DNA of 63,491 nt, filler included, from Chiloscyllium plagiosum (Eukaryota): the NCBI RefSeq assembly GCF_004010195.1. It is 12 parts of 12 records of this genome, joined end to end, with 100 filler letters (N's around TTAATTAATTAA, not from the genome) between each part and the next. Parts side by side here need not be neighbours in the genome. Positions count along the whole stretch, not along the records: positions 1 to 28,021 come from NW_025214032.1; 11 more parts are not named here. One strand, written 5' to 3'. Positions 8,078 through 46,766 of the stretch are shown here, piece after piece. The notes below the pieces were generated by a model. That model was not told the origin of the DNA, did no database searches, and was given only the letters and a program-made list of their open reading frames with translations. The position numbers and the translations under genes were made by a program. Every line of letters begins with the position of its first letter. The stretch's first letter is position 1.

Positions 8078-8406
8078 CTACACACATTCTGATCTCCTGA
8101 TGCTCTTGCTGAGGGGAGAGGGGAGGGCCACGTGGGTGAGGGCACAGGAGAAGCGAGCATTGGACTCCCAGTCAGACCCAGAGAGGGTCAGCAGGCTGCT
8201 GACACTGTAGGTGCTGTCTGAAGCTCGCAGGTAGTTGCTGGTCTGGACCCCGTCCAAAATGACTGCACCATCCTTCTTCCACTGCACCTCCAGCTCATCG
8301 GGATAGAAGTGATTGGCAAGGCACACCAGGGTGGCAGTGCCCTTGGCATTGACCTGCTCTGGGGAGGGGGGCAGCAGGGTCAGCTTGGGCTGAGAGTTCT
8401 CACGGC
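8078..8406 (-). CDS. IGKC: Ig kappa-type light-chain constant exon (SRENSQPKLTLLPPSPEQV...LSKSIRRSECV*)
   Basis: Acceptor tttcag|GC at 8406 in phase with J. C1-set motifs (TLVCL, FYP, W, YSVSSLL, FSCALTH) and a near-terminal Cys. TAG at 8078-8080. Confidence 0.95.
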
Positions 8407-8679
8407 CTGAAAGACAAGAGAAACAATTTTAATCCCTGCCATTCAAATGGATTTCAACTCTCAGAACGTTCATTGGCAAAACAATCCATTTGAACATTTG
8501 CAAACAATACTTACAAACCTGCGAAAAGAATGGACATTTATTAAACTTTCTCTTTGATGTTGGGCATCGAAGTCCCCCACCCAGAGTACAATCTGTGCCA
8601 TCAATGCCCTCAGTGTTTCCTCCAAGTGTTCAACGTGGAGGAGATGTTGATGTATCAGCCAAGAGAGGGCAGTGTGTTT

Positions 8680-9830
8680 TAATAAGCAGGTGGTTCCATA
8701 CAATCATACAGTACAGAAGAGGCCATTCACCCCATTAAGTCTTTACAACTAAGATATTGGAAATCTACTCTCCACCCATTTTCCAGAACTGGGCCCATAA
8801 CATTGAATATTATCCAAGTACTGCTCAAGTTTGTGAGGTTTGCTGCCTCAACTACCCTCCCAAGGCAATGTATCCAAGACCCCCACCCTCTGGGGGAAGA
8901 AACATTTCTTCACATCCCCTCTAAACCTTGCACATTGAATGTGTGCCATCCTGTTATTGTCCCTCTGTCTGAGGGGAACAGTTACTATCTTCCTACCCTG
9001 TGCACTTCCCCCATACCCTGCACCTCTCTGTCAGATCCTCCCCCTCAACCTTCTCTGCTCCAAAGTAAACAATCCAAGTGTATCCAGCCTCTCACCACAT
9101 TGTCTCAGATGCTCCATGCCAGGCAACGTCCTGGTCAATCTCCTCTGCGCCCCCTTCCAGTGTAATCACATCCTTCCTACAGTGTGGTGACTGTAACTGC
9201 ACATAGTCCTCCGGCTGAGGCCTAACCAAAGTTCTGCATCACTCAAACATATCCTTCCTGCTCTTATAATCTTCACCTGAAATTACAAAGACAGCTATCC
9301 AATATGCCTTCATAACTGCTCTAATAACCTGCCCTGGCACTTTCAGGTATCAGTAGACAATCACTCCATGATTATGTTCTCACACAGATTCCCAGTGTCC
9401 TGCCATTCATTGAGTACTCCATTGTCTTGTTAATTCCTCCAAAGTGCGATGTCTCACATTTATCAGATTTAAATTCCAGCTGCCTCTGATTTGCCCATCT
9501 GATCAATCCTGAATCCTAAGACCATCTTCCTCACTTTCAACCATCCAGCCAATCTTCATGTTGTCCACAAACTCAGTATCATCCCCTCCTGCATTCTCAT
9601 TGACATTGTTTGTATATATTATAATCAGTGAGGGTCCCAGCACTTATCACTGTGACATGTGGCCCATGTCAGTCGCCCATGTGGGACCTTGTCAAAGACT
9701 TTGCTGAAATACAAACATACTACACACCCTCATCTACACACCCAGTGACCTCGACAAAATTCCACCAGATTTGTTGGCCCTGGTCTCCCTCTGACAAAGC
9801 CACACTGACTATCCCTGAAATGGAGATTCA
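8680..9830 (-). mobile_element. CR1-type LINE 3' fragment
   Basis: Reverse complement of CR1 RT C-terminal and 3' UTR motifs (e.g. tgtaatcacatccttccta...aactgcacatagtcctcc). Confidence 0.65.
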
Positions 9831-9989
9831 TTCTGTTTTCAAAACTTCCTCCAATTGTATCCCTACCGCTGATGTGAGACAGACAGGTTTTCCTTGCCCA
9901 TGCTTGACCTGATGCTATAAGACTTCACGGGGTCCAGAGTCAATGTTGAGCACTCCCAGGGTCACTCCTGAAATACCATGAGAGCAGGA

Positions 9990-12900
9990 AGTGTGGTCAG
10001 TGACAGCAGTTGGAGATCCAGGTTTCGGAGCTTGAGCAGCAGCTGCTGTCAGTGCCGAATGTCCGTGAGGCTGAGAGCTCCGTGGAGAGCACGTTTCTAG
10101 ATGTGGTCACTCTGCAGCATCAGAGTATGCAGGGAGAGAGGGAATGGGGGAGCAGCAGACAGTTCAAAAGAACCAGGCAGCTAATACAGGAATCCTCTGA
10201 ATGTATCCCACTCTCCAACCAGTTTGGAATCCTGATGAGAATGATGGTGTGCAGCCGGAGCCAAGTCCATGGCACCATGGGGGACTCAGCTGTGCAGGGG
10301 GGCACAAGGAAGACTGGAAGAGCGATAGTGAGAGGAGATTTGATAGTGAGGGCAATCGATAGATGTTTCTGCAGCTGCAGATGGGAATCCAGGATGGTGT
10401 GTTGTCTCCCTGGTGCCAGGGTCAAGGATGTCACTGAGCAGCTGCAGAGCACACTGAGGGGAGAGGGGGAACAGGCAGCAATCGTGGTCCACATCGGTCC
10501 CAGTGACAGAGGGAGGAAAGGGATATGGTCCTGCAGTCAGAATTTAGGGAGCTCAGGAGGGAATTAGCAGCAGGAGCACAAAAGTAGGAATCTCTGGATT
10601 ACTCCCAGTGCCCCATACAAGTGAGAATAGGAACCGAAGGATAACACAGGTGAATGTGGAGCCGGAAAGACCGTCCAGGAGGGAGGGCCTTAAATTCTAT
10701 GGAGTTGGAGTTGACTCCAGAAGAGGTCTGGGACAGACTGGAGGGCTTGCTCCTGAACAGAATTGGGACTGAGTTTTTTGTAGGTGATTTGCTGGTGCTT
10801 TTGGAGAGACTTTAAACTAACTTTGCAGGGTTGTGGGGACCAGGAGATAATATCACAGAGGAGCTCCAAGGCCTACAGAATCCTGGGAAGATAGATAACA
10901 CCAGAATAAGGAATAGTAACTGAGCAGGCAGAGTGAGGGAATGAGCAATAAATTCTAATTCTGGGAGACTGTGCATATATGAGCCTACACCAAGTATAGG
11001 GAATCAGACTAGGGAGTTACATACAAAGAGTGCCAAGTGGAAACCTGATGTTGTTGCTCGAACAGAGGCCGGACTAAAAGAAGGGCAGGACTGTGTCTTC
11101 AATATTCCTGGATACAAGGTGTTCAGGAAAGAGAGAACAGGAGGAAAAGGATGGGGACTGGTGGGAATAGTTAAGGAGATCAGTGCAGAGCTGGAGAAAG
11201 AGGATGTCCCAGAAGGGTGAAGGACAGAATCGATTTGGCTCAAGATAAAGAACAAAAAAGGTGCAATCAGATTGTTCAGTGCAGTCTGTAGCTCACCGAC
11301 TAGTGGGCAGGACGTCAAGGGACAAATCTGCAAGAAATTTACGATGAGTTGCAAATATTATAGAGTCATTACAATGGAGACATGTAATTATACAAAGTTC
11401 AACTGGATTAGTAGCATTGTGAAGGGCAGAGAGGGGCCAGAGTTGTGAGAGTGTGTTCAGATGAATTTTCTCCAGCCGTCTGTTTCCAGTCCAATGAGAA
11501 AGACGGCTCTGCTAGACCTGGATCTTGGGAATGAGGAGGACCAAGTAGATCAAGTGTCAGTGAGAGGACATTTAGGGAAGAGTAATCATTGAATCACAAG
11601 GTTTAGAGTGACCGTGGAAAAGTACAAAGGGAAATCCAGAGTAACATCATGATCGTAGATCATATCGCATGGATCACCTCCAAATGTCTCACACTTTACA
11701 ATTTTCACATTTTTTTAAAAAAGCAACAGGAGATTGGTGAGTTACTTCCCTCAGTATATTCTGTTGAGTAAGACATGGAAGCTAAGGCAATTCAGGAAAT
11801 AAACAGGGATGTCTTGAAAAGAGTCTGCATTGCAGAAGAGGAGGTGCAGGAATGTAAATAAATCCATTGGACCTTATCAGATCTATCCAAGACTTCTGTG
11901 TGAAGCTACGGAGCAGACTGCAGCACCCCTTGCAGAGATATTTGTGCCACTGTTAGCTACGGTGAGATATGGGAAGGCTGGAGATTGGCTAATGTTGTGC
12001 CATTATTTCAGATTGGCTGCAAGGAAAATCCAGAGAACTATAGACCAGTGTGTGTGACATCAGTGATGGGTAAGTTATTGGAGAGGACTCTGAGAGACAA
12101 GATCTACATGGATTTGTAAAGCCAGGGATTGATCAATGATATTCAACATGGATTTGTGCAGGGGAAATTGTGTCTCACAAATTTAACTGAGTTTTTTAAA
12201 GAGGTGACCAAGAAGATAAATGAAGGCAGAGCAGTTGTCTGCATGGATTTTAGCAAGGCCTTTGACAAGGCTTGAAGTGGTTGTTTGGATAATAAGGTTA
12301 GATCACATTGAATCGAGTGATAGCTACAGCTTGTCAGTTTGATATAAAATTGGCTTTACAGTAGGGCCAGAGTGGGTTGGGAGAAGTGGTGTTGTTCAGA
12401 CTGGAAGCAAGTGACCAGCGGTATGCCGCCAGGATCAGTTCTGGCTTCACCGTTATTCATCATATACATCAGCCATTTGGATGAGAATCCAGGAGGTATG
12501 GTGAAACAACTACAAAGTATCCCATCACCAAGTCACCCTTTATTTACAGAGTACACTGGCTGCAGCCAGCCAGCTTGGAGTCAGTCTCTGAACTCAGGAG
12601 ACTCTCTGAATTCCCTGTTATATCAGTCAGCCAGGGTTCCCTGATTGGCCCAGGTTAACAACCCCAATCAAGGATCTCATAGTCAATAAGATCTACTTGG
12701 GTCCAATCATTGTACATGGTAGCTGATGAATTCAAGATTGGTGGCACAGTGAACAATGAATGGTACAATGTGATCTCGATTAACTAGGCCAGTGGGCTGA
12801 GGAATGTCAGGTGGATATTAAATCAGACAAATGTGAGGAGTTGCATTTTTTTAAAGACAAACCAGGGCAGGACTTACACAGTTAATGGGAAGGCTCTGTG

Positions 12901-13540
12901 GAGTGCTGCCAAAGATGGAGAACTAGGGGTGCAGGTATACAATTCCTTGAAAGTGGCACCACAGGTAGAGACAGGGTGGGAAAATAAGTATTTGGCACAC
13001 TTGCCTTCTTGGCAAGAGCATTAAGTACAGGAATCGGAATGTCATTACGGCTGTGCGAGACATTGGTAAGGCCACACTTGGAGTACTGCATATAATTCTA
13101 GTTGCCCTACTGAAGGAAGGGTGTTATTAAACTGGAAAGGCTGTTAAAAATATACAAGCATGTTCTTGAGAATGGAAGATTTGAGTTATGAGGAAGGTTG
13201 ATTAGACTGGCACTATTTTCCCCTGGAGTTAAGGAGGCTGAGGGGTGACCATTTTGAGATTTATAAAATCATGAGGAGCATGGATGAGGTAAATAGCCAA
13301 GGTCTGTTCCCCAGGGTAGGGTAGTCCGAAACTGAAGAGCATCGGTTTAACGTGAGAGAGGAAAGATTCAGAAGAGAACTGAGGAGCAACTTATTCACAC
13401 AGGCGGTGGTGAATATATGGAACATGTTGCCAGAGGAAGTGGTAGAAGTGAGTACAATTGTAACAGTTAAAAGTCCATTGGACAGGTAAATGGATAGGAA
13501 AGGTTTACAGGGATATGGGCCAAACCCAGACAAATGGGAT
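9990..13540 (+). mobile_element. Near full-length decayed CR1 (HER1-like) LINE in the IgL J-C intron, antisense to the gene
   Basis: ORF1 esterase-like motifs (AIVRGDLIVR...CLPGARVKDV...IVVHIG in ORF 10010-10567), then disrupted endonuclease/RT sequence and a CR1-type 3' end. Confidence 0.85.
12502..12716. mobile_element. ~215-bp insertion interrupting the CR1, possible solo LTR
   Basis: Non-CR1 sequence with TG...CA ends, flanked by short (a)tgg repeats; the CR1 RT sequence resumes on both sides. Confidence 0.4.
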
Positions 13541-13773
13541 GAGTGGGCAAAGATAAGGTGAATAATTCAGGAAGGATGAGAACTGAGGAGCAACTTATTC
13601 ACACAGGTGGTGGTGAATATATGCCAGAGGAAGTGGTAAAAGTGAGTACAATTGTAACAGTTAAAAGTCCATTGGATAGGTAAATGGATAGGAAAGGTTT
13701 ACAGGGATATGGGCCAAACCCAGACAAATGGGATGAGTGGGCAAAGATAAGGTGAATAATTCAGGAAGGATGT
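13374..13773. repeat. ~200-bp tandem duplication of the CR1 3' end
   Basis: gagaactgaggagcaacttattcacacagg...gataaggtgaataattcaggaaggatg occurs twice in tandem. Confidence 0.85.
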
Positions 13774-14299
13774 GGATATTTTACAAGGAGAAAGCTGACA
13801 GGAGACTTGACTGAGAAATTCAAAATCCAGAGGGATGTGGACAGAGTAAGTAGAGAGAAAATGTTCCTAATCAGGAAAGGATTGAGTGGGAGAAGCCACA
13901 GATTGGAGGCAATTGGTCCAAGAAGTAAAAGTGAGATGGGGAACAACTTTTTCAGCCAGTGAGTGGTTAAGGTGTGGAATGCACTGCCTGAGAGTGTGGT
14001 GGAGGCAGCTTCAATTGAAACATTCCGAAGGGAATGAGACTATTATTTGAAAAGGAACCATGTGCAGGGTGACAGGGAGAAGGCAGGAGAAAGACACTCA
14101 GTGAATTGCTCATTCAGAGAGCCAGTACAGACAGGATGGACAGAATGGCGTACTGTTCTATGTTCTATGTTCTATGAATTGCCCATTCGGAGAGCCAGTA
14201 CAGACAGGATGGGTGGCCTCCTTATGCACTGTAACAATTCTGTGATTGTGTGATTGAGCAGAGTTAAAGCTGGGGGAGGTGGGAGCTCGGTGTCTCACT

Positions 14300-14332
<33 letters not shown>

Positions 14333-14701
14333 AGGTCAGTGAGATCAGAGACTGGGACAGGGAGCCAGAGCTCACATCAAACTCTGCCCGTGTCTGTCAC
14401 ACTGAGACTGGCAGGAGGCTACTCACTGATTTCACTCCATGCTGCAGGAATGGGACCACAGGCTGTAAATGGACAGAGCTCCTCCACACGGTGAGTAAAA
14501 CTTACTGACTTATATCTTACTGCTTAAAGGGGGCAATGGAACTCAAGAAATACAGCTGGATACCCTGTTAGACACAGTGCTTCTCAATAAACCATTTCAT
14601 TCACTGCAGCTCCCCACCAACACCTTCAACAATTCAGCATTTGTGTTTTAGAAAGTTTCAGTATTGAAAAGGTTAATAACGGAGGATTGAGGTTTACTTA
14701 C

Positions 14702-15067
14702 TCAGTCTGAGCTTGGTTCCTTTACCGAACATAAGAGGGTAGCTGTCATACTGCTGACAGTAATAGTCAGCGACATCCTCATTCTGAACGTTACTGATTT
14801 TCAGGGTGAAACTGGTCCCTGACCCACTGCCGGTGAACAGGGTGAAACTGGTCCCTGACCCACTGCCGGTGAATCGATTGGAGACTCCTGTGAATCGATC
14901 TGTTGCGTCATAGATCAGGAGAGAGGGTTTCTGACCTTCTCGCTGCTGGTACCATGCAATGTTATCGTAAATGTCTTGACTGGCTGTGCAGGTGATGGTT
15001 GCAGTGTGGCCCAGTCCCACTGACAGCACCGGGGGAGACTGGCTCATGATGATGTCCCCACTGATAC
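14702..15067 (-). CDS. IGK: Ig kappa-type V-J exon, joined in the genome ([20 protein letters not shown]...WYQQ...[26 protein letters not shown])
   Basis: Acceptor cctcag|GT at 15067. Canonical Cys, WYQQ, YYC and FGxG motifs lie in one open frame with no RSS between V and J. Donor A|GTAAGT at 14701. Confidence 0.95.
14802..14873. repeat. Perfect 2 x 36-bp tandem duplication in V FR3 ([12 protein letters not shown] twice)
   Basis: cagggtgaaactggtccctgacccactgccggtgaa at 14802-14837 and 14838-14873. Confidence 0.95.
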
Positions 15068-15251
15068 CTGAGGGGTCAGAGAAACACAGTAAAGTCAGAA
15101 CTGTCACAGAAAGAGCCTGTCAAATGAGAGATTGTTGGAGACACTGAGCTTTCCTCTGGTTTCAGCATTTTCCCTTCAATCACAAGTCAGTGGAATTGGA
15201 GTGAAATGGAGAGCAGCTAAAGATTCAAGGTGGAAGGAGAGCGATTTGTAC

Positions 15252-15300
15252 CTGCGACACAGAATGCCAGGGGCCAGATCAGCTGGATGTGTGAAATCAT
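15252..15300 (-). CDS. IGK: Ig light chain (kappa/NS4-type) leader exon, MISHIQLIWPLAFCVA-G
   Basis: ATG at 15300, hydrophobic signal peptide, phase-1 donor GCAG|GTAC, in frame with the V exon. Confidence 0.93.
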
Positions 15301-15360: not shown

Positions 15361-15457
15361 TTTATAAAGCTGCAGCCTGTGAGAGTCTGACTGGGTGTTC
15401 CTCAGTATGTAAATGGCATCAGGCAGAGAGAGCCACATCAGCACCTCACACTTCCTC
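15361..15457 (-). promoter_or_regulatory. IgL V promoter: TATAAA (15361-15366), octamer variant ATTTACAT (15407-15414), PU.1-type GAGGAAGTG (15449-15457)
   Basis: Motifs read directly 60-160 bp upstream of the leader ATG, in the order typical of light-chain promoters. The octamer has 1 mismatch to ATTTGCAT. Confidence 0.6.
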
Positions 15458-20864: not shown

Positions 20865-22125
20865 AATGGACGGTGAAGAAGGTTACATCAAGGTATAATG
20901 GGAACTCGATCTGATGGGCCAATTGGCTCAGGAGTAGCAGATGGTGTTTAATTTAGATAAATGTGAGGTGCTGCAGTTTGGTAAGACAAACCAGGGCAGG
21001 ACTTATACACTTAATGGGAGGGTCCTAGGGAGAGATTTTGGGGTGCAGCTTCATAGTTCATTCAAAGTAGAGTCACAGGTTGACAGGTTAGTGAAGAAGG
21101 TATTTGGGACACTGGCCTTATCTGATGGGCCAATTGGCTCAGGAGTGGCAGATGGTGTTTAATTTAGATAAATGTGAGGTGCTGCAGTTTGGTAAGACAA
21201 ACCAGGGCAGAACTTATACACTTAAAGGGAGGGTCCTAGGGAGAGATTTTGGGGTGCAGCTTCATAGTTCATTCAAAGTAGAGTCACAGGTTGACAGGTT
21301 AGTGAAGAAGGTATTTGGGACACTGGCCTTTATTGGTCAGAGCATTGAGTATCGGAACAAAACCAGAAATTGCTGGAAAAGCTCAGTAGGTATGGTAGCA
21401 TCTGTGGAGAGAATCAGAGTTAATGTTTCAGGTCCAGTGACCCTTTTTTAAAATTGAGGAAGGATCACTGGACCCGAAATGTTAATTCTGATTCCTCCCC
21501 ACGGGTGCTGCTAGGCCTGCTGAGCTTTTCCAGCAATTTCTATTTTTGATTCTGATTTTCGGCATCCAGTTATTTTGGTTTTTATTGGAGCTGTGATTTC
21601 ATGTTGCGGCTGTACAGGACATTGGTTAGACCACTGTTGGAATACATCATTCAATTCTCGTCTCCCTGCTACAGGAAAGATGTTGTTACACTTGAAAGTA
21701 TATAGAATAGATTTACAAGAATATTTCCAGGGTTTGGAGGGATTGACCTTTAAGGAGAGGCTGAATAGGCTGGCGCTATTTTCCCTGGAATGGTCAAGGC
21801 TGAAGGGTGACTTTGTTGAGGTGTATAAAGTCATGGGGCATGGAAAGGACCAATAGTAAACGATTTTTTTCCCGTGGTAAGGGAGACCAAAACTAGAGGT
21901 GAGAGGAGAAAGATTTAAAAGAGACCTAAGGGGCAACTTTTTCACACAGAAGGTGGTGCGTGTATGCAATGAGCTGCTAGAGGAAGTGGTAAAAGACATG
22001 AATAGGAAGGGTTGAGATGGATATGGGTCAAATGCTGGCAAATGAGACAAGATTAATTCAGGATATCTGGTTGGCATTTACGAGTTGGACCGAAGGGTGT
22101 GCTTCGATGTGTTACAACCCTATGC
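20865..22125 (+). mobile_element. CR1 3' fragment containing a ~211-bp tandem duplication (20910-21330) and a hairpin insertion
   Basis: FNLDKCEVLQFGKTNQGRTYTLNG and ERLNRLALFSLE..RLKGD motifs; the duplicated unit is visible in the ORF track. Confidence 0.8.
21357..21575. mobile_element. Palindromic MER6/Penelope-like short element inserted in CR1
   Basis: Inverted arms agaaattgctggaaaagctcag...ctgagcttttccagcaatttct around a short loop. Confidence 0.65.
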
Positions 22126-24585
22126 CTCTGTGGTTACCAGAAACTGATTCGCTCTCTCTCCTCCACCTCTCTCTCTCTTTCTCTCTCTGTCTTTCATCTT
22201 CCATCTCTTTCTCTATCTCTCCCTTTCTCTCAGTCTGTCTCTCATTCTCTCTCACACACACACACTGTCCCATAGCCACTCTCTCTAACTCCCTCACTTT
22301 CCCTCAGTCTGTCTCATAATCTCCATCTCTTACCATCTCACTCACAGACTCCTTATCTCGCTCTTATTGAAAACCTCTACCCGGTTATCAGTCCCTTTCT
22401 GTTCCTCCCTCTTTTTCTTTTCCTCCCTCTCTACTCTCTCTCCCTCCCTCATTCTGTCTCACACTCAGCCTGTCTCTTTTTGTCCTTCTCTGACACTCTG
22501 ACTCTCTCTCTCCCTCTCTCTATCTCCCTCCCTTTCAGTCACAATATCTCACACCCTACTTCTCTCTTCCTCTATCCCTTAATCCCATCATCTCTACCTC
22601 CCACTACCTCTCTATTGCTCCTTCCACCCATCTCACACTGTACAGACCCTCCTCCGCCATTCCCTCATGCACTCTTCCTCTCTCTTTCCCACAGTCTCCC
22701 AGCTGGTGATGGTAAATCTACCTCTGCTCTGCCCCACTCATGGATATTAACCCTTGACCCCAGAGGCATGTCTTCCCCTGGAGTAAGGCCCCATTTCCCA
22801 CATTGACCAAGGTTTAGCCTCTCTCTGGAAGATGGACAGATTCTTGTCAAGTGAAGGGCAGTTCTGTGCTGTTGGCCTATTCTCACTGGGGACTGGTTTG
22901 GTAAAAAACCTCATTCCATGAAGGTCCAGCAGAGAGAGGAGATCCTCAGGCCATCAGTGTGAGCTGGAGGGACAGGACAGGCTCTGACCCACTGACCTAT
23001 CCTCTCAATTCACAACATATCCTAATCCCTTCCCCTCCCCCTTCCCCTTCCCCTTCCCCTAGCCCTTCCCCTTCCCCTTCCCCTTTCATGGTCAGACTCC
23101 GGGTTAGGCTGTTTTACTGGGATGACGGCTGGACCATCACACAAGTACAACAGAAAGAAACTGAGTACCATATCCATCATGGTGCCCATGTCCCACTGGA
23201 CCCTCCAACAGAGACCAGTAAACATGGACCTCAGGACAGCAGAGGGTAAGTTTGGAACCCTGAGCTCCATTTCCCAATCATATTTCTCATATTTTAATAA
23301 ATTCTTTAAATTCATTCACTGGATGCAAATACTGTTGGCTCGGCAAATATGTATTCGCCATCCCAAATTATCCTGGAGAAGATGATGAAGAGCTGCTTTC
23401 TTGAACAACTGCAGTCCATGTGCAATATGTGTACCCACAATGCCCTTGGGGTGGGAATTCCAGAATTTTGACTCAGCAGCAGTAAAGGAATGGTGACGCA
23501 TTTCCAAGTCAGGATGGTAAGCGACTTGGAGGGGAATTTGCAGGTAATTCCCATGTATCTGATGTCCTTGACCTACTAGATGGATATGGTTGTGGATTTG
23601 GAAGGTCCTGTCTCAGGAGCATTGATGGATTTCTGCAGGGCATCCTATAGATTGTACACACTGCTGTTACTGAGCATTGGTGTTGTGGGGTGGGGTGGGG
23701 GTGGGTAAATATGTGTGGATGTTGTGCCAATCAAGTCGGCTGTTACATCCTGAGTGATGTCAGGATTCTTGGATGGTGTTGGAGCTGACCCCATCCAAGC
23801 AAATCGAGAATATTCCATCACACTCTGCCTTGTGCCTTGTGGATACTGGGCAAGCCTTGGGGAGTCAGGAGGTGAGTTACTTGCTGCAGGATTGTTAATC
23901 TCGGACCTTCTCATGAAGCCATTCTAACTATTTGGTGAGATCAGTCAGGTTTCTGTTTACAACTGGGATATTGATAGTGAAGAACTCAATAGTAGTAACG
24001 CCATTTAAATTCAAGTGCCATTGGTTAAATTCTCTCTTGTTGGATTGGCCATTAGCTGGCATTTGTGTCGGTGAATGTTACTTGCCACTTGTCTGCCCAA
24101 GCCTGGATATTGTCCAGATCCTACCATTTTTGAACATAGACTGCTTCAGTATCTGAGGAATTGTGAGTGATGCTGGACATTGCTCGCCACTGATTGCACA
24201 TCGCTACTCTGATCATATAATGGGGGGAAGGTCATTGATAAAGCAGCTGAAGATGATTCGGCCTGTGACACTATCCTGAGGAACGCCTGCAGAGATGACT
24301 GACCTCCAACAACCACATCTTCCTATGTACCAGGTAGGACTCTAACCAGTGGTGAGTTTGTCCCCTGATATCCATTAATTCCAGTTTTGCCTGGGCTCCT
24401 TGATACCACATTCAATAAAATTTGATGTTGATGCCAAGGGCTGTCACTTTCACCATACCTTTGAAATTCAGCTCTTTTGTCCATGTTTGCACCAAGGCTG
24501 TAATGAGGTCAGGAGCTGAGTGGCCCTGGCAGAACCCAACTGAGAATCACTGTCCAGTTTATTGCTGAGCAGATGCTGTTTCATA

Positions 24586-27500
24586 GCACTGTTGAGACAA
24601 CTTCCATTGCTTTATTGATGATTGAGAGTTGGCTGAGGAGATGGTAATTTGGATTTGTCCTACTATTGACGTCCAGGACATATCTGGACAATTTTTCACA
24701 TTGTTAGTTCGATACCAGTGTTCTAGCTGTCCTTGAATAGCTTGCGTAGGGGAGCAGCAAGTTCTGGAGCACAAGTCTTCAGTCCTATTTCCAGAATATT
24801 GTCAGGGCACATAGCCTTTGCAGTCTCCAACCATCTCCAATGGTTGCAGCCCCCAACAATTTCTTGATGTTGCGTGGAGTGTATCGAATTGGGTGAACAC
24901 TGATGTATGTGATCCTGGGGATCACTGAACGAGGCCAAGGTGGATCATCCACTGGGCAATTCTGGCTGAAGATTGCTGCGGTTTCTGAAGCCTTATCTTT
25001 TGCACTGATGTGTGAGGCTTTTCTATCATTGAGGATGGGATATTTATGGACCCCCTCACCCCCCCCGCACCCCATCTCCACTGAGTTCTTTAATTGTCCG
25101 CAATCATTCACGAGTGGATATGGCAGGACTACAGAGCAGAGATCTGGGCCGCTGGTTGTGGAATCACTTAGCACTTTCTATCGCAAATGAGTATTTTGCA
25201 TCAGTGTTTACCATGGAGAAGGATATGGAACATCGGGAACTTGGGGAAATAAATTGTAACTTCTTGAAAAAATGTTCATATTACAGAGCAGGATCTGCTG
25301 GAAATCTTAAACCTCATAAAGGTGGATACGTCCCTGGGACCTGGTCAGGTGTGCACTGGAACACTGTGGGAGCTAGGGATTGCTGGCCCCCTTGCCGAGA
25401 TATTTGTATCTGCAATGGCCAAAGATGAGGTGCCGGAAGACTGGAGGTTGGCTAACGTGATGCCACTGTTTAAGAAAGTTGGGAAGGATAAGCCAGAGAA
25501 CTATAAACTGGTAAGCCTGATCTTGGTGGTGGCCAAATTATTGGAGGGAATCCTGAGGGACAGGTTGCGCATGTATTTGGAAAGGCAAGGACTGATCAGG
25601 GATAGTCAACATGGCTTTGTGCCTGGAAAATCATGTCTCATGAACTTGATTGTGCTTTTTGAAGAAGTAATAGGATTGATGAAGGCAGAGTGATGAACGT
25701 GGTCTATATAGTCTTCATTAAGGTGTTCGACATGGTTCCTCTTGATATTCTGCTGAGCAAGGTTATATCACATGGAATACAGGGACAAAAAGCCACATGG
25801 ATAGAAAACTGGCTTGAAGGCAACAGAAGACTGGGTTGTGGTGGAGGGATGCTTTCTGAACTGGAGGCCTGTGACCAGTGGTGTGCCAAAAGGATCAGTG
25901 AAGGATAAAGTGCTTTTTGTCATTTGTAGAACATCGAACACAGAACACAGAACAGTACAGCACAGTACAGTCCCTTTGGCCTTCGAGGTTGTGCCAACCT
26001 TTTATCCTATTCGAAGATCAATCTATCCGATATACCTTTAATTTTATTATCATCCATGTGCCTATTCAAGAGTCATTTAAAATGTCCCTAAAGCACTGTT
26101 GAGAAACCTTCCATTGCTTTATTGATGACCGAACGTTGGCTGATGAGGTGTTAATTTGGATTTGTCCTACTCTTTACGTCCAGGACATATCTGGACAATT
26201 TTTCACATTGTTAGTTCGATACCAGTGTTCTAGCTGTCCTTGAATAGCTTGTGTAGGGGAGCAGCAAGTTCTGGAGCACAAGTCTTCAGTCTTATTTCCA
26301 GAATATTGTCAGGGCACATAGCCTTTGCAGTCTCCAACCATCTCCAATGGTTGCAGCCCCCAACAATTTCTTGATGTTGCGTGGAGTGCATCGAATTGGG
26401 TGAACACTGATGTATGTGATCCCGGGGATCACTGAACGAGGCCAAGATGGATCATCCACTGGGCAATTCTGGCTGAAGATTGCTGTGGTTTCTGAAGCCT
26501 TATCTTTTGCACTGATGTGTGAGGTTTTTCTATCATTGAGGATGGGGATATTTATGGACCCCCTCACCCCCCCGCACCCCATCTCCACTGAGTTCTTTAA
26601 TTGTCCGCAATCATTCACGAGTGGATATGGCAGGACTACAGAGCAGAGATCTGGGCCGCTGGTTGTTGAATCACTTAGCTCTTTCTATCGCAAATGAGCA
26701 TTTTGCATCAGTGTTTACCATGGAGAAGGATATGGAACATCGGGAAATTGGGGAAATAAATTGTAACTTCTTGAAAAAATGTTCATATTACAGAGCAGGA
26801 TCTGCTGGAAATCTTAAACCTCATAAAGGTGAATACGTCCCTGGGACCTGATCAGGTGTGCACTGGAACACTGTGGGAGCTAGGGATTGCTGGGCCCCTT
26901 GCCGAGATATTTGTATGTGCAATGGCCAAAGATGAGGTGCCGGAAGACTGGAGGTTGGCTAACGTGATGCCACTGTTTAAGAAAGTTGGGAAGGATAAGC
27001 CAGGGAACTATAAACTGGTGATCCTGATCTTGGTGGTGGCCATGTTATTGGAGGGAATCCTGAGGGACAGGTTGCGCATGTATTTGGAAAGGCAAGGACT
27101 GATCAGGGATAGTCAACATGGCTTTGTGCCTGGGAAATCATGTCTCATGAACTTTTTGAAGAAGTAATAAGATTGATGAAGGCAGAGTGATGAACGTGGT
27201 CTATATAATCTTCATTAAGATATTCAACATGGTTCCTCTTGATATTCTGCTGAGCAAGGTTATATCACATGGAATACAGGGACAAAAAGCCACATGGATA
27301 GAAAACTGGCTTGAAGGCAGCAGAAGACAGTGGGTTGTGGTGGAGGGATGCTTTCTGAACTGGAGACCTGTGACCAGTGGTGTGCCAAAAGGATCAGTGA
27401 AGGATAAAGTGTTTTTTGTCATTTGTAGAACATCGAACACAGAACACAGAACAGTACAGCACAGTACAGTCCCTTTGGCCTTCGAGGTTGTGCCAACCTT

Positions 27501-27590
27501 TTATCCTATTCGAAGATCAATCTATCCGATATACCCTTAATTTTATTATCATCCATGTGCCTATTCAAGAGTCGCTTAAATGTCCCTAAT
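24586..27590. repeat. ~1.5-kb tandem duplication of a composite LINE segment (minus-strand LINE fragment plus plus-strand CR1 RT fragment)
   Basis: Units start at ~24586 and ~26092 (agcactgttgaga...ttccattgctttattgatga). Paired ORFs such as 25322-25693 and 26829-27167 carry VPEDWRLANVMPLFKK...SQHGF. Confidence 0.9.
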
Positions 27591-28324: not shown

Positions 28325-28630
28325 CTGGACATGGCATTACTTTGCTCTTGTGTGTCCCGCTGTGTTGAACCTCACAAGAGATTTTGCTGGAGCAATCTAC
28401 CGCTGACCCGGACAGGGTTAACTGGCTGCTCAGGGTGTAGGTTCCCTTCTTGTTTCTCACTGATGGGTAAGTCTTCAATCCAGTCGTGATTAGCTCCCCA
28501 CCTTTCTTCCAGGTTAACTTGGTGACGTCAGGGGAATAGTCCATCACCAAACAACCAAAGATCACAGAACCGGTGTTGTGCTCCAGACAGGAGGAGACCA
28601 GGCCATAAAGCGTGGGGGGAGACGGTGTCT
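28325..28630 (-). CDS. IGHM: IgM heavy-chain Cmu1 exon ([15 protein letters not shown]...[10 protein letters not shown]...[19 protein letters not shown]...[17 protein letters not shown])
   Basis: 306-bp open phase-1 exon, acceptor tgtag|AG, donor G|GTAC. Motifs match shark IgM CH1, including the L-chain-binding Cys. Confidence 0.9.
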
Positions 28631-29292: not shown

Positions 29293-32200
29293 GCTGCTGG
29301 AAATACCCAACAGCTGGCAGTACCCCCGGAGAGAAATCAGAGTGAATCATAGAACATAGAACATTACAGCGCAGTACAGGCCCTTCGGCCCTCGATGTTG
29401 CGCTGCCCTGTCATACTAATCTGAAGCCCATCCCACCTACACTATCCCATGTACGTCCATATGTTTGTCCAATGACGACTTAAATGTCCTTAAACTTGGC
29501 GAATCTACTACCGTTGCAGGCAAAGCATTCCATACCCTTATTACTCAATGAGTAAAGAAACTACCTCTGACATCTTTCTTATACCTATCTCCCCTCACTT
29601 TAAAGTTGTGTCCCCTCGTGTTTGCCGTCCCCATGCTTGGAAATCAGGTCCAGTGCCTTCCTCACTTATCAATGCAAGGCAGAATGTTCTCTCTGGGAGG
29701 AAGGTCACTGCAGCAGCAGCAGCACAGGCAGGAGCTGAGCACTGGGACGGGGAGGATGGCTGTCACGGCTGAACTCATGCCAATTGTCTGGAAGTTGAAA
29801 CGTCTCTTTTACAATTATCTGAATTCTGGAGGCTGCTGAAAAATGGAGGACCATTAAGGTTCAGAGACTTTGGAGTGTTACAGCTGAGTATTTACGTAAA
29901 TATTATTTGAGAAATGAACAAGTAATCTTTAATTTTAAAAGCTATCAAACTGACACACAGTTCACCAGCAAACCTCATCTTTCAGACTAACCACTGCACC
30001 TACTCTGTCTAGACCTAAATTCCCACTCACATTGACAAACCCTACCCTGCTATACACCTATTCATGCCTGGAACACACAACCCCTATCACACGAAACACA
30101 TCCAAGGCAATCCATGTTGGTAGTGTAGCTGAGCAGAGAGATCTCGGTGTCCATGTACATAGATCCCTAAAAGTTGCCAGCCAGTTTGACAGAGTTGTGA
30201 AGAAGGTATACTTTGTGTTGGCTTTCATCGATAGAGGAACTGAGTTTCAGAACCACGAGATTAGGCTGCGGCTGTACAAAACTCTGGTGGGGTCGCACTT
30301 GGAAGTATTGTGTACTGTTCTGGTCAGCACATTATAGAAAGAATGTGGAAGCTTTGGAAGAGTTGAGAGGAGGTTTACCAGGATGTTAATTGGTATGGCG
30401 GGAAGGTTTAATTAGGAAAGGATGAGGGTCTTGATGCTGTTTTTATTTGAGAGAAGAAGGTTGAGAGGTTGATGCTGTTTTTATTTGAGAGAAGAAGGTT
30501 GAGAGGTGACTTAATTGTGACGTAAAAGATAAACAGAGGGTGGACAGTGAAAGTCTTTTTCCTTAAATAGTGATGGCTCGCAGGAAAGGACATAGATGAC
30601 AGATGTCAGAGGTTGTTTCTTTACTCAGAGAGTAGTAGGGCCATGGAACACACTGCCTGCAACAATAGTACACTCGCCAACTTTAAGGGCATTNNNNNNN
30701 NNNNNNNNNNNNNNNNNNNNNNNNNNNNNNNNNNNNNNNNNNNNNNNNNNNNNNNNNNNNNNNNNNNNNNNNNNNNNNNNNNNNNNNNNNNNNNNNNNNN
30801 NNNNNNNNNNNNNNNNNNNNNNNNNNNNNNNNNNNNNNNNNNNNNNNNNNNNNNNNNNNNNNNNNNNNNNNNNNNNNNNNNNNNNNNNNNNNNNNNNNNN
30901 NNNNNNNNNNNNNNNNNNNNNNNNNNNNNNNNNNNNNNNNNNNNNNNNNNNNNNNNNNNNNNNNNNNNNNNNNNNNNNNNNNNNNNNNNNNNNNNNNNNN
31001 NNNNNNNNNNNNNNNNNNNNNNNNNNNNNNNNNNNNNNNNNNNNNNNNNNNNNNNNNNNNNNNNNNNNNNNNNNNNNNNNNNNNNNNNNNNNNNNNNNNN
31101 NNNNNNNNNNNNNNNNNNNNNNNNNNNNNNNNNNNNNNNNNNNNNNNNNNNNNNNNNNNNNNNNNNNNNNNNNNNNNNNNNNNNNNNNNNNNNNNNNNNN
31201 NNNNNNNNNNNNNNNNNNNNNNNNNNNNNNNNNNCACACTGCCCACCTCTGCACTAACCAACCTGGCACACTGCCCACCTCTACACTAACCAGCCTGGCA
31301 TCCTTCCCACCTCTCCATAAACTAGCCTGGCAAAGACAGACCTCTTGCATTTCAGCTCAAACTACCCCTCACCTACCAAGCACAATTCGACCAAATTATC
31401 CTGTGACCATTACCATTTACCTTGATGCCACCTTGCCAGACAGAGTGCATGCAAGCCTACCCATCAGCCAGCCAACACCTCACCGCCTACCAGCCCAAAC
31501 TCTCCCACATGCCTAATCTAGCCCCTCACTTGCTCACCACCTTCCAACTTTGAGCCTACTCCACCATAATGTCAGTGAGTCATAAAGTCGTACAGCACAG
31601 AAACAGTTCCCTTGGTCCATCTCATTCATGCTGACCAGAGTTCCCAAATTAAACTAATTCCACTTGCCTGCCTTTGGCCCATATCCATCCAGACCTATCC
31701 AGTTCCTGGAGCTGTTCAAATGTCTTCTAAATGTTGGACCTATCTCTGCATTTACCACTTCCTCTGGCAGTTCATTCCAATGTTTTGGACAGTTACAACA
31801 TGAAGCCCTAACTCCTGCAGTCGGTGCTCTGACCAATGAAGGTACATGTGCCAAACACCTTCAACACACTAGCTACTTGAGACAACGCTTTCAAGAATCT
31901 ATGAGTCTGAACCATCAGGGTCCTCATGTGTTCAATATCACTACCCAGTGCCTTACCATGAACTCTGTAAGACTCTATGAGTCTGGACCCTCAGGGCCCT
32001 GTGTTCAACATCACTATCCAGTGCCGTACCATTAACTCTGTAAGTTGTGACATGATTTGTCTTCTCAAAAAGCAACACGTCATAGTCATTTAAATTACAC
32101 TCCATCTGCCACCCCTCAGACAATTGGCCCAGCTGATCAAGATCTCATTATACGTTTAGATAACTTTCACTGCCAATTATACCACCAATGTTGGTGCTAC

Positions 32201-37290: not shown

Positions 37291-37399
37291 GTGAGAGTTC
37301 CCAGGGCTTTCTCCCCACACAGTGAGGCTGCTTCTTCCCAGATTCTGGGACTCTCTGTTTCTCTGACCGGCTTATCTTCTGTTTCTCTGTTATTCACAG

Positions 37400-37693
37400 G
37401 TGTCCGCTCTCAGATCGTGCTGACACAGCCTGAATCAGTAAGCCGGGGGAGTCTGTCAGACTGACCTGTACAGTGAGTGGGTTCAGCCTGGATGACTACT
37501 GGATAAACTGGGTGAGACAGGTCCCTGGGAAAGGGCTGCAATGGTTACTTGATTACAAGCAAGGTCAAAACAGTGATTACGCACCTGGAATTCGAGGCAG
37601 ATTCGTCCCTTCAAGAGGCTCCACCACAGTCGCCTACCTCGACATCAACCAGTTGAGAGTGGATGACACTGCCATGTATTACTGTGCAAGAGA
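37400..37693 (+). pseudogene. IgW-type VH segment with a 7-bp FR1 deletion (frameshift)
   Basis: GAATCAGT^AAGCCG versus the paralog GAATCAGTTGTGAAAAAGCCG gives an early TGA. The downstream frame still has C, WVRQ and YYCAR. Confidence 0.88.
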
Positions 37694-37732
37694 CACACTG
37701 AGAGCAAGTGGGGCTGGCCTGGTACAAAAACT
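37694..37732 (+). other. V 3' 23-RSS (CACACTG-23-ACAAAAACT)
   Basis: Heptamer variant, exact 23-bp spacer, near-consensus nonamer. Confidence 0.9.
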
Positions 37733-38070
37733 CACTGAGAGAATCGACAGTCAGGGGAATCAGTGAAAAGGGAGGAACTATCACACACCACCCCTCAGCT
37801 ACCAGCACAGCTTCATTCCCATCCTGACTGTGTTGGGATCTGCTGGTCCTGGGAATGGGGAAATGGGATTATTCACTGCTGATTCCTGGCACTGGCGACA
37901 TGATGGGAAAAGGAGTTCGGGACATGAACAAAGATCTCTCTGGACTGAAACAGGGGAGAGGGCAGTCCCTGGGCAGGGAGAATCAGAGCAGCATTGCTCA
38001 TTTGGAGCAGTGTCAGTGTGATCGGGTTAAATGTGAAGTGACTGGACTCAGTGTCAGGGAAAGGGGAGGA

Positions 38071-38154
38071 GGTTCATGTACAGCTCCCTATCACAGTGTC
38101 TATATACTGGAGTGGCACAGTGAGAGAGATGGGGGATCTCCCCATTCAAAAACC
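38071..38154 (+). other. D1 segment (38099-38115, TCTATATACTGGAGTGG) with 5' 12-RSS and 3' 23-RSS
   Basis: GGTTCATGT-12-CACAGTG / CACAGTG-23-TCAAAAACC. Confidence 0.9.
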
Positions 38155-38471
38155 TGCCACTGGAAACCTATTTAAACTGCTCTCTCCGGGTGCTATCACT
38201 GGCTTTACTTCCTGAGCTGTGGATATAAATCAGATCCAATTCAACAATCTGGGCGTGGGAACAACTTTCTGTGAAGATATCACTTGAAAGATGCAAAGAG
38301 CAGTGAGGAACAGAGAGAGGATGATGGAGAAAGAAAACTCCTTGTGGATTCCCCCAGCTTCCCATACAGTCCTGAAAACCCCGGCATTGACTCCTGGAGT
38401 GTGGGAGACACCCGGATACAGACTGGGGAGTTGTTTGGGACATTTGATTTCGGGCTGGATCCTGTAGCTGT

Positions 38472-38540
38472 GGTTTCTGAGCCCGGCTGAAACACTGTGA
38501 TGGATATACTACCACAGCAGCATAAAGCCTGACACAAACT
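38472..38540 (+). other. D2 segment (38500-38512, ATGGATATACTAC) with 12-RSS on both sides
   Basis: GGTTTCTGA-12-CACTGTG / CACAGCA-12-ACACAAACT. Confidence 0.88.
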
Positions 38541-38904
38541 GCCCCTCTCCTAATGACAGTGTGTATCCATGGATTTCACATTCCTGTTTCCCAGAGTGAA
38601 ATATCTAAACACTGACTGGGATTGTCAGGGAAAATGTCGATTCCTAGGAGAAAACAAGAGAAAAAGGAGGCGATTCTTTTTATGGATAACTTGCAGGAGC
38701 TGGTGTACCACAGACAGGAAAACTGTAAAAACACCTCATTTATAGATACATTTGGGACAAGATCAGGATGGAATTTCAGATGAAAATACAGGAAGTTGCT
38801 GCTCCGGGTTAAAACACAGTTTATGGTTAATTCCCTGGGGATTATTATATATTGAGCTCAGGGTCAGTTATTGTATTGGGTGAATGAAGAGACAGAGCAC
38901 AGTG

Positions 38905-38954
38905 GTATTATCTTGACTACTGGGGGAGTGGGACCTTCCTGGAAGTGACTTCAG
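38905..38954 (+). CDS. IgW-type JH segment YYLDYWGSGTFLEVTS with 5' 23-RSS (38866-38904)
   Basis: WGxG motif, donor CAG|GTAAG, AGTTATTGT-23-CACAGTG upstream. Confidence 0.92.
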
Positions 38955-39409
38955 GTAAGACAAACTTCCCAATTCTACTATTTTCTACAATTTATTGTAT
39001 TTAATGTGTGTTTAGTGAATTTGATAATTCAGTAAAATCAGTGAGGTACTTTGGACAATTACATGATTCCATCCCAGAGAGGTGAATTTCTGCAGAGTCA
39101 AGAATATACCCAGTAACTGGAGCTGAAACCCGAGACTAGATTTATTCTCAATAGTTTATATTCAACCTCAGAAAACCTAATAAAGGTTCTGGGATCTGTT
39201 TAACATGCTCAGCTTGATCCAGATTACATTATTCAGGATACTTGCTGTATTGGGGTAGGTTTAATGATTTTCAACGGTTGGATATTTGGAGCCAGNNNNN
39301 NNNNNNNNNNNNNNNNNNNNNNNNNNNNNNNNNNNNNNNTTAATTAATTAANNNNNNNNNNNNNNNNNNNNNNNNNNNNNNNNNNNNNNNNNNNNACCAC
39401 ACCAGGCCC

Positions 39410-40725: not shown

Positions 40726-40951
40726 CCCACTGATAGAGCTGGGCCTCTGCCAGGCTGCTGTGTTCAATCTGACAGGAGTATTGATCCTCATCCCCAGCAT
40801 TGATCTCAATCTCTTTCTGGATCTGCTGGGTCCCATCGTGGTTCGGTCGTACCCCCGAGGAATGTGTCTCAGACATGACCTCTCCATTCCTTAGCCAGGT
40901 CACCTTGATGTCGACAGAATCAAACCCAGTGACCAGGCAGGAGAGAGTGAG
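40726..40951 (-). CDS. MHC class I alpha3 exon, partial and open (LTLSCLVTGFDSVDIKVTWLRNG...GVRPNHDGTQQI...YSCQIEHSSL)
   Basis: Class I alpha3 signature PNHDGT and both C1 cysteines; truncated by gaps at both ends. Confidence 0.85.
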
Positions 40952-41051
40952 NNNNNNNNNNNNNNNNNNNNNNNNNNNNNNNNNNNNNNNNNNNNTTAAT
41001 TAATTAANNNNNNNNNNNNNNNNNNNNNNNNNNNNNNNNNNNNNNNNNNNN

Positions 41052-41446
41052 TCAATCATCGATTTCCATCCGAAGTCAATCTCCATGATTTCGTTGAAAA
41101 ATGGCCGACGCTTGGATTCTGGCTTCTTCACGTCTCCCGTGTGTGAGGCAAACGGGAACTTCTCGGTNCTTCTCCTAACTGTGAGCTCCAGTGAATAAAT
41201 CGCAAGCAGTAAGTTTACAACTGTCGTCTGTTCAATCATCAATTTCCATCCGAAGTCAATCTCCGTGATTTGGTTGAAAAATGGCCGACTCTTGGATTCT
41301 GGCTTCTTCACGTCTCCCGTGTGTGAGGCAAATGGGAACTTCTCGGTGATGAGTCCCTGATGGTGAATGGTTCAGCAGCGCAGTCTATACCTGCCAGGTC
41401 ACTCATGGAGAGAACATTCAAAATAAAAACATCACCGCACTCCAGG
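41052..41446 (+). pseudogene. IGHM: IgM Cmu2 exon with an in-frame TAA (41196-41198) and frameshifting deletions near 41355-41365; a second partial copy at 41052-41167
   Basis: LLLTVSSSE*IAS...[21 protein letters not shown]...[13 protein letters not shown]...YTCQVTH; donor CAGG|GTAAG at 41447. Confidence 0.82.
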
Positions 41447-43411: not shown

Positions 43412-43720
43412 AAGATACCGAGTGGCACATCAACACCGTTAAAATCCTCCCACCGCCAGTAGAACAAGTCTTACTGGAGGCGACGGTGACGTTAACCTGC
43501 GTTGTGTCCAATCTTCCTTCTGGAGTCAACGTGACCTGGACACAAGAAAAGAAACCTGTGAAATCAGAGATTGCTAACCAGTCTGGACAGAATCCCGACA
43601 GCGTGATCAGCAAATTCAACATTTCTACTGAAGCCTGGCTGAGTGGCGTTACTTTTGAATGTGTGGTGTACCATCAGAATCTACCGACTCCGCTGAGAGA
43701 CTCCATCCACAAGGAGAAAG
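43412..43720 (+). CDS. IGHM: IgM Cmu3 exon (...[34 protein letters not shown]...[22 protein letters not shown])
   Basis: Open 309-bp phase-1 exon with AG/GT boundaries and shark Cmu3 motifs. Confidence 0.9.
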
Positions 43721-44161
43721 GTGAGCGGTGAGATTAAAGCACAAAGCATCCTATATGTAATGCAGATCCAGTTACATCAATGACAGGCTTTGATTGGTAA
43801 TGAACAAACACCGTTGGGGGCATTAATGATGCATCTGAAGGCAGGATAGCTAGGTAGCTGATAAAGAAAAAGATGGACCAAAGGATTAAGTCAGATAAGG
43901 TGGGAAGAAGCCTGAGTTGTGATGTCACCATCAGCAATGTCAATTGGACAGAATGCCCTTGTTGTGGGCTGGAAACATGGAGGCAACTTTCACATTAAAC
44001 TTTACTTTTTTTAATGAACAGAATGTGTACCATACTGCTCCTTTAGAAAACAAAAGTGAATAAATCCCAAATTAAACATTGCTATTTTAATATTTAGTGA
44101 AACTGTGATATTGGTTCAGGATGTTTTTGGTTGATTTATATTTGTCTCAAATATTCTGCAG

Positions 44162-44547
44162 TGATTAATCTGCTGGAGCCATCAGTGTCGGTCCTCCTTC
44201 CACCAACAGAAGAAATCTCCGCTCAGAGGTTTCTCTCCCTGACCTGTTTAGTGAGAGGTTTCTCCCCCCGAGAGATCTTCGTCAAGTGGACAAACAATGA
44301 CAAGCAGGTGAATCCCAGTAACTACAAGAACAACGAGGTGATGGCGGAGAGCGACAACATCTCCTTCATCGACAGCCTGTTATCCATTACAGCGGAGGAG
44401 TGGGCCAGCGGTGCTTCTTACTCCTGTGTGATGGGACATGAAGCGATTCCACTGAAGATCATCAACAGAACAGTCGATAAATCCAGCGGTAAACCGAGTT
44501 TCGTAAACATTTCACTTGCACTGATGGACACTGTTAATTCATGTTAA
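44162..44547 (+). CDS. IGHM: IgM Cmu4 plus secretory tail (...[28 protein letters not shown])
   Basis: Acceptor tgcag|TG, internal TM donor AGCG|GTAAA at 44489, AATAAA overlapping the stop (44546-44551). Confidence 0.9.
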
Positions 44548-45249
44548 TAAAAATCTCAAAGTTGCATTTAATAATTCAACAGAAGTAATGAAGCGTTTTT
44601 TTCCCTCCAGTTGTGAGTTACATACTGAATTAGTTGTTTCCCACTCGGACTTATTAACAGGTCTAGGACGAGTGTCTTGTGCAGTTAATGTTCTCTGCTC
44701 AGATACACCCTGGGTCAGAGGCAGAGTAAAGCTCTCTCATTGCAGGATTCCGCCAAGTACCTTATCCATCCTAAATCCCTCTGTGACAACATCTGACAAT
44801 GTCCATTTTACGTCAAGGGTAGAGCACGAGTTTTGAACTTAGTGTTCTTGATTNNNNNNNNNNNNNNNNNNNNNNNNNNNNNNNNNNNNNNNNNNNNTTA
44901 ATTAATTAANNNNNNNNNNNNNNNNNNNNNNNNNNNNNNNNNNNNNNNNNNNNATCTTTTATGATTATAAGTCAAATAAAATGGGAAGAAACCTGGTTTG
45001 TGTTTTTAACATCAGCAATGACAAATGTACAGGAAGACTTAGTTGTGGGTTAGAAACATGGAGTCCACTTTCGAATTAAACTCTTTACTCTTAATGAACA
45101 GAATGGATATCATTCTGCTGGTTTAGAAAATGAGAGTGTATAAAGCCCAAATTTTAAAACAAAACTGACATATTTTAATATGTAGTGACATTGCAATGTT
45201 GATTCTGGATTTTTATAGTTGATTTATATTTGTTTCAAATATTCTGCAG

Positions 45250-45593
45250 GAGAAAAGCTACTGGAGCCATCAGTGTGTATCCTACTGCCACCCACAGAAG
45301 ACATTTCCGCTCAGAGGTTTCTCACCTGTTTAGTGAGAGGTTTCTACCCCCGAGAGATCTTCATCAAATGGACAAACAATGACAAGCCAGTGAATCCCAG
45401 TAACTACAAGAACACCGAGGTGATGGCGGAGAGCGAGAACACCTCCTTCTTCATGTACAGCCTGTTATCCATTACAGCGGAGGCGTGCGCCAGCGGTGCT
45501 TCATACTCCTGTGTGGTGGGTCATGAAGCTATTCCACTGAAGATCATCAACAGAACAGTCGATAAATCCAGCGGTAAACCGAGTTTGCACTGA
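45250..45593 (+). CDS. IGHM: Second IgM Cmu4 exon with the secretory tail truncated by a 16-bp deletion (...SSGKPSLH*); possibly a pseudogene
   Basis: Aligns with 44162-44547. It also has a 6-bp deletion before the first Cys and EEW changed to EAC. Confidence 0.82.
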
Positions 45594-46766
45594 TGGACAC
45601 TATTAATTCATGTCAATAAATAACTCAAAGTTGCTTTTAATAATTCAACAATAGTAATAAAACTTTTTCCTCAAATTGTGATTTAAATATACAACCGTTT
45701 AATTAATTGTGTTTCCCACTTTTACGTATATTACACCTGTAAAGTTAAATTGGATTATTAACAGGTCTCGGACTCGTGTCTTGTGCAGTTGATGTCCCCT
45801 GCTCAGGTAAACTTAGGATCAGAGGGAAAGTAAAGCTCACTCAATGCCGGATACTGCAAAGTACCTTCACCATCTTAAATTCCATTTCAACGGAATCTGA
45901 AAATGCCCAATTTCTCTCAAGTAAATACAACGAACTTTGAACTTTGTTTTCCTGATTCCCCGATTGCACATTCTCACAAAATTCATGTCGGCTTTAAACT
46001 GCCACAATGCAACAATTTCAACCGCAATCTTAAGAGACATTTGGAATTAATTTTGATTGGAAAATGCCAATCGCAAACAGTGCAGAGTAAGTTGAATATA
46101 ACCCTTCTTTCTGTGGAAGGAGGGATCTTGTACCAGTGCAGTGGTTGACAGAATGCATCTTTATTTCCACACCAAAGAGACCCGAAAGGACGGTTATTGT
46201 TGTTGAGCCGAGGTAGGGGGAGAGGGAAATTATTAATGGTCTGTACTCTTAGTCACTCTGCAGAGTTTTAAAGATAGAAGACCTCTGTAATGTAACCCAG
46301 TTGCTGACAGTAACAGTCAGCGAGTTGTTTCCTGTCCGAAGATTCCATGTTTCCATGTAAAATAATACTTTTGTGTCTGCCTAATTCGATTGACGCTATT
46401 AATCGTTTGTTAACATTGACTCCCCTTAATCCAAAACTGGTATTTACATCATCCCAGTTTGTAGTCCATAGTTTTGTCTCAGTTTTCTGGAGCACATGGG
46501 ATAAATTCTGGTCTTCGAACATCTGACATAATTTTGCTTCACGTACAGAACATTTGTAGACATTTTGTAATCAGCATGTTCAGAAATGCAATTCTGCATA
46601 TCTGGAGTAGTGGGGATTTGAGCTCAGGTCTCTTGTCTCAGAGACAGAAATTCTTTCGCTGTAACANNNNNNNNNNNNNNNNNNNNNNNNNNNNNNNNNN
46701 NNNNNNNNNNTTAATTAATTAANNNNNNNNNNNNNNNNNNNNNNNNNNNNNNNNNNNNNNNNNNNN

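Follow-up and report, generated by a model that had tools for sequence, protein, structure and literature searches.

The window, a stretch of 63,491 nucleotides from Chiloscyllium plagiosum, carries a kappa light-chain gene on its minus strand, the coordinates 14702 to 15300 of the original prediction proving exact (Table 1). Once spliced, the leader, V-J and CL exons form a 744-nt open frame of 247 amino acids with a single terminal stop. The V-J protein runs unbroken through a 9-aa CDR3 and the CL exon is open to its stop, which confirms the in-frame fusion of V to J and an intact CL. A processed retrocopy was rejected, as both the leader intron and the J-C intron are present; the view that this is no copy of a processed mRNA therefore holds. 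The leader residues are the same as those of nurse shark P0059 (17 of 17), and contigs from two sequencing runs, X7 and X10, skip 184 nt at the leader intron, which is evidence at the level of the family. Since there is no N gap between positions 4647 and 28021, V-J and CL lie on one stretch. A tblastn search of positions 1 to 28021 found one VL and one CL, fitting a single V, J and C for each cluster.

Table 1. Features of the kappa light-chain gene and of the rest of the window (positions count along the window)
Feature	Position	Strand	Details
Octamer-like element ATTTACAT	15407..15414	-	107-114 nt upstream of ATG
TATA box TATAAA	15361..15366	-	motif in the sequence
Leader exon (MISHIQLIWPLAFCVA-G)	15252..15300	-	49 nt; ATG at 15300; NSL primer site, 0 mismatches
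Leader intron	15068..15251	-	184 nt, GT..AG
Fused V-J exon	14702..15067	-	366 nt, in frame, then GTAAGT donor
Perfect tandem duplication in FR3	14802..14873	-	36 nt; 12 residues twice, in frame
CDR3 QQYDSYPLM	14730..14756	-	27 nt, 9 aa
Inferred V/J joint	~14736/14735	-	placed from the flanks of split relatives
J-C intron	8407..14701	-	6295 nt; donor GTAAGT, acceptor TTTCAG; repeat fragments inside
Kappa CL exon	8078..8406	-	open; ends in interchain Cys-Val and stop
AATAAA	7549	-	530 nt downstream of CL exon
Unrearranged VH-D-D-JH cluster	37380..38960	+	23/12 RSS; paralogous to and 92% identical with that at 46767..48330
VH of this cluster	37380..37700		one stop near 5' end in the printed frame; splice site may alter frame
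Unrearranged VH-D-D-JH cluster	46767..48330	-	23/12 RSS
Second kappa CL	54947..55270	-	open; 98% protein identity to the first; own contig, with neither V nor J
Heavy-chain-type C1 exons	43438..45600 (+), 40726..41440, 28362..28622 (-), 58555..58806 (+)		
Tandem doubling	30431..30507		38 nt, 100%
Tandem doubling	20909..21330		211 nt, 98%
Tandem doubling	13374..13772		194 nt, 93%
Tandem doubling	24585..27589		1.5 kb, 96%

Positions 28022 to 62224 consist of small contigs parted by spacers of 100 nt (N44-TTAATTAATTAA-N44) at 11 places, across which order and distance are meaningless. Nearly every one of these small contigs bears Ig-like exons, among them two heavy-chain clusters, a second kappa CL and exons of heavy-chain C1 type (Table 1). 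The exons at 44176 and 45264, two copies, resemble the last domain of IgW/IgNAR type. Some of the tandem doublings along the window may be unmerged assembly overlaps.

The family of the gene was read from primer sites, protein matches and trees. NSL and JL5, primers for nurse shark NS4, each match with 0 mismatches, the latter at 14712. The closest proteins were kappa V genes of Chiloscyllium punctatum (52 matches among 151 candidates), shark kappa-like models matched as well (20 matches among 22), and the identity of the CL is 95% with C. punctatum P0067 against 91% with nurse shark P0059, which points to the bamboo-shark family as its likely source. In a 38-row tree that had five tetrapod kappa-like rows as outgroups and no shark lambda or sigma rows, the V fell in the shark kappa clade with support of 100/99. 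By its sequence, then, the gene is a shark NS4/kappa light-chain cluster, as had been proposed. The exact V-J protein had no match in a collection of 15 billion sequences. Two Ig V sequences, P0039 and P0041, come from contigs of 299 and 564 nt whose records name Salmonella and Helicobacter, and are likely contamination in those bacterial records.

The nearest V rows were P0002 (C. punctatum GCC42976.1) and P0065 (Scyliorhinus torazame), with support of 95/84 in a 24-row tree and 84/0 in the 38-row tree. Both belong to a split V subfamily that resembles the window gene in its xIxxNIA-type CDR1 and its QQYxSxP end, but in both the V reads on into an RSS where the window gene runs on into J. These two kappa Vs, one from a bamboo shark and one from a catshark, have the same CDR1, QGIDNNIA, in contrast to the separate expansion of NS4 in each species that has been reported. 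The conserved CDRs of the subfamily may mark a selected specificity.

The promoter had been described as intact. TATAAA and an octamer-like element are in place (Table 1), but the octamer, ATTTACAT, is 1 base off the consensus, ATTTGCAT. The variant looks normal for the NS4/kappa family, because P0002 and P0005 of C. punctatum also read IYI at the octamer stretch.

To search for recombination signals we scanned both strands for a heptamer, 11-13 or 22-24 nt and a nonamer, allowing up to 3 mismatches. The scan gave 12 sites in the whole window, with the interval from 2641 to 37693 free of any, in agreement with the claim that neither an RSS nor a V-J spacer is left; only a bare CACTGTG occurs, 120 nt inside the J-C intron. 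In protein models of split relatives the V ends in Pro plus 2-3 nt ahead of the heptamer (P-x-HSDT.. or PYTVIQS), and the J opens with SLW-[L/F]-[T/M]-FG; zebra shark P0068 has the Met form, SLWFMFGKG. The joint in the window reads CCT/CTT ATG TTC. From these models we infer a Pro/Leu-Met joint with the V trimmed to its Pro codon, the J shortened by about 1 base and zero N bases. The alignment to unjoined kappas thus accounts for the joint without N bases at the level of protein models, from which the trimming was read rather than from the DNA of split clusters.

The likeliest origin of the gene is a RAG-type join of V and J in the germ line, to which we give a probability of about 0.8 because the joint needs no N bases and the closest V relatives are of the split kind. 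Under this reading, in a germ cell of an ancestor RAG would have cut at the RSS of both V and J, and the ends would have been trimmed and joined with deletion of the spacer, the V back to its Pro codon and the J by about 1 base, with no N bases. The joined cluster would then have been inherited ready-made and become fixed. By analogy with nurse shark, it would be expressed without rearrangement, chiefly in young animals and driven by the octamer/TATA promoter, and its light chain would pair with a heavy chain, the CDR3 being fixed unless hypermutated. An innate-like light chain of fixed specificity, as originally proposed, is a hypothetical role for it.

Among the 24 sequencing runs listed, the best share of words was 0.46 and no RNA run was named as a holder of the sequence. 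From four of them (X1, X5, X7 and X10, with tissues coded) contigs were aligned to positions 14350-15500, with 245-1492 contigs aligned per run; contig assembly drops rare variants. The original prediction of a germline-joined gene has an NS4 precedent (PMC2193156) and stands as the likeliest origin, but the exact junction was found in none of the 32 contig pieces listed from the 4 runs (2835 more and 74 loose ends fall outside those listed). This is a point against it, but neither such a miss nor a stretch left uncovered by these contigs amounts to evidence of absence. An X10 piece covering 14707-14796 without a gap was rejected as this junction; it differs at 7 places, has just 29 letters beyond the joint in the J, and represents another 9-aa rearrangement. 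Two further results count against a germline origin. The Met codon of the J is in the minority, with depth not reading Thr of 164/1239 in X1 and 2839/243707 in X7 but 0 in both X5 and X10, and at several flank sites (e.g. 15323-15359) the letter of the window occurs in no aligned contig of the 4 runs. With these flank letters missing, the runs may derive from a close relative or have dropped this copy of the gene. In favor of a germline origin, an 85-nt contig of X7, the run that also has the spliced leader, covers 14931-15015 across CDR1 with 0 differences at a depth of 584, a match that may come from another animal or from a split sister V. Both VH clusters in the window are unrearranged, which also counts for the germline.

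The foremost competitor, which we hold to be improbable, is that the assembly caught, from blood or spleen DNA, the allele of a B-cell clone that had been rearranged and perhaps also hypermutated. Such a genomic allele would likewise keep both introns and have no RSS, and the missing junction among the listed contigs suits it. Replacements relative to the nearest split V, P0002, lie mostly in the CDRs, which counts against a germline origin, as hypermutation would do likewise. On the other side, somatic NS4 joints of nurse shark tend to have N stretches and germline ones lack them (PMC2193156), and none are needed here. The differences from the family majority number 5-8 in the 366 nt of the V-J exon, 5 in 146 nt upstream and 9 in 352 nt of the J-C intron; they are not concentrated on the V exon, which counts for the germline, and those upstream of the expected transcription start (15350, 15352, 15359 and 15437) are at least as dense as those in the V exon. 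This count covers 21 of 36 displayed places, picked by eye, and rises to 8/366 in the exon when 14747, 14899 and 15006 are included, which had been omitted though the window letter there is often the minority one; it is also biased, with the CDRs under-read, by the cut of CDR-rich contigs below 90% and by 13 rows outside those listed. WRC hot spots hold 6 of 17 G/C changes against a background of 24.5%, and this, too, speaks against a somatic origin, as does the identical CDR1 stretch in X7, whose animal may differ. Moreover, the allele of a single clone would seldom survive in a consensus assembly.

As shown in Table 1, the FR3 holds a perfect tandem duplication that the original prediction had missed. 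The distance from cysteine to cysteine is 77 residues here and 65 in every one of the 13 relatives measured; the word at the duplication joint occurs in 1 of 79 proteins compared, the window's own, and in 0 of the 78 others. The gene was predicted to be intact; its frame is open, but as assembled its FR3 is 12 residues too long. In-frame FR3 duplications are the kind of insertion that hypermutation makes, and this one would suit a somatic allele. We lean towards an assembly error as its cause, given that the assembly is stitched and that the window contains other near-perfect doublings; the fact that the 36-nt insert keeps the frame favors a real duplication a little. The PstI fragment measures 766 nt as assembled and 730 nt without the duplication, and in nurse shark the fragments are 727-754 for joined NS4 genes and ~1200 for split ones (PMC2193156); that the shorter size lies in the joined range is only a hint, as it comes from another species. 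A dip in depth at 14818-14856 in the contigs of all 4 runs shows only that paralogues lack the duplication. The single X1 contig lacking the 36 nt differs at 6 other places in 73 nt and hence comes from a sister copy.

In an AlphaFold prediction of the V domain, made from a 41-row alignment, the V fold is kept with both cysteines and the Trp (mean pLDDT 79.7), and the best PDB light chain matched the predicted model with a TM of 0.84. Residues 62-71 have a pLDDT below 50, a predicted disordered loop at the duplication. If real, the duplication would give a flexible 12-residue loop, with the domain, on this model, still folding. A germline-joined gene whose FR3 duplication is real and inherited, with the 12-residue loop outside the CDRs and with a join of its own in the bamboo-shark line, is in this full form rather unlikely. 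If it were true, several separate joins with 9-aa CDR3s would let germ-cell RAG events be dated and compared against split sister clusters, and the duplication, if real, would present the unusual sight of a pre-joined receptor altering its shape once freed from rearrangement.

It is far less probable that the gene is a chimera, stitched from different kappa clusters and absent from the genome as one piece. The window does consist of stitched contigs with 11 N44-TTAATTAATTAA-N44 spacers, near-perfect tandem doublings of 38 nt, 211 nt and 1.5 kb occur elsewhere in it, and the family has many near-identical copies, as the number of contigs aligned per run attests. However, the end of the V and the start of the J have no long common word at which an assembler could fuse them, which suggests that the junction was in the reads. 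Moreover, the sequence to the left of the duplication is nearest to P0002 (54/61) and that to its right to P0065 and P0062 (20/22, with P0002 at 19), all of the same V subfamily. A wrong link deeper in the 6.3-kb intron, bringing in another CL, is possible.

The idea that the gene is a relic whose V and J were never split since primordial times can be all but dismissed: its single-exon VJ and split leader recall UrIg2, but the V is nested among kappas with split genes as nearest relatives, a tree position that contradicts a relic, the single CL domain is 91-95% identical to shark kappa CL, and for NS4 the same question was settled toward joining (PMC2193156 and PMC2193153). UrIg itself has VJ followed by three C domains and stands outside the four IgL isotypes (PMC12227049, source of the UrIg2 layout also), and a gene of UrIg type was rejected here, there being one kappa CL and not three C domains.

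Returning to the germline join, a contiguous V-J with a 9-aa CDR3 is also present in four genome models of C. punctatum, namely P0055 (XP_072429389.1/392.1), P0056 (XP_072429398.1), P0057 (XP_072429437.1) and P0076 (XP_072429442.1). They are likewise kappa, with a near-identical CL, but belong to other V subgroups, and their CDR3s end in NPRT, WSLT, YPYT and WSIT. Judging from the gene models, these four appear to be joined in the genome. A RefSeq model of Cetorhinus maximus, P0061, has a contiguous V-J with an 11-aa CDR3. These five models may represent additional kappa genes joined in the germ line that have so far gone unlabelled.

The join had been proposed to be lineage-specific. A separate, lineage-limited join is plausible and likely from the sequences, because the nearest V relatives are split. 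This part of the proposal is supported by the placement next to P0002 and P0065, but in the 24-row tree a single clade uniting the window gene with the four contiguous C. punctatum genes was not rejected (p-AU 0.077), nor was pairing the window gene with any one of those four (p 0.21-0.36).

In the open-access literature we found neither bamboo-shark kappa genes described as joined nor such an FR3 duplication; subscription papers and supplements were outside the scope of the search, and a description may exist there. Germline-joined NS4/kappa genes have been known since 2000, and the window gene is most likely one more such cluster. The chief genomic evidence for RAG action in germ cells, past and perhaps present, comes from germline-joined Ig genes (PMC2193156 and PMC2193153). 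A joined kappa gene whose nearest relatives are split contributes one data point on the frequency of joining and bears on whether 9-aa, N-free joints are those retained, leaving the model unchanged.

The closest known system is that of Lee et al. (2000), who described germline-joined NS4 (kappa) genes in nurse shark (PMC2193156, on which the following nurse shark NS4 details depend). Six joined NS4 genes were found there, four of them in frame, amounting to ~10% of ~50 genes and to at least 5 events, with trimming, P bases and scant sign of TdT. Two of them, R4 and R18, were recovered from spleen/epigonal libraries of pups, and 0 of 40 adult cDNA joints corresponded to them. The window gene has the same isotype and the same L-intron-VJ-intron-C layout as R4, R7, R18 and RE18, with a leader intron of 184 nt against 186 nt in nurse shark NS4, and shares with them the primer sites, the PstI sites, an in-frame joint, no remnant of an RSS and no need of N bases. 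It differs in its 36-nt FR3 duplication, which goes unmentioned for the R genes in the accessible text. Moreover, germline status and expression in pups were shown for the nurse shark genes, whereas the window gene is known from assembled DNA. Sigma-2 and IgM1gj of neonatal nurse shark are also pre-joined receptors expressed without rearrangement (PMC4279169 and PMC5192425), but of isotypes other than the kappa of the window.
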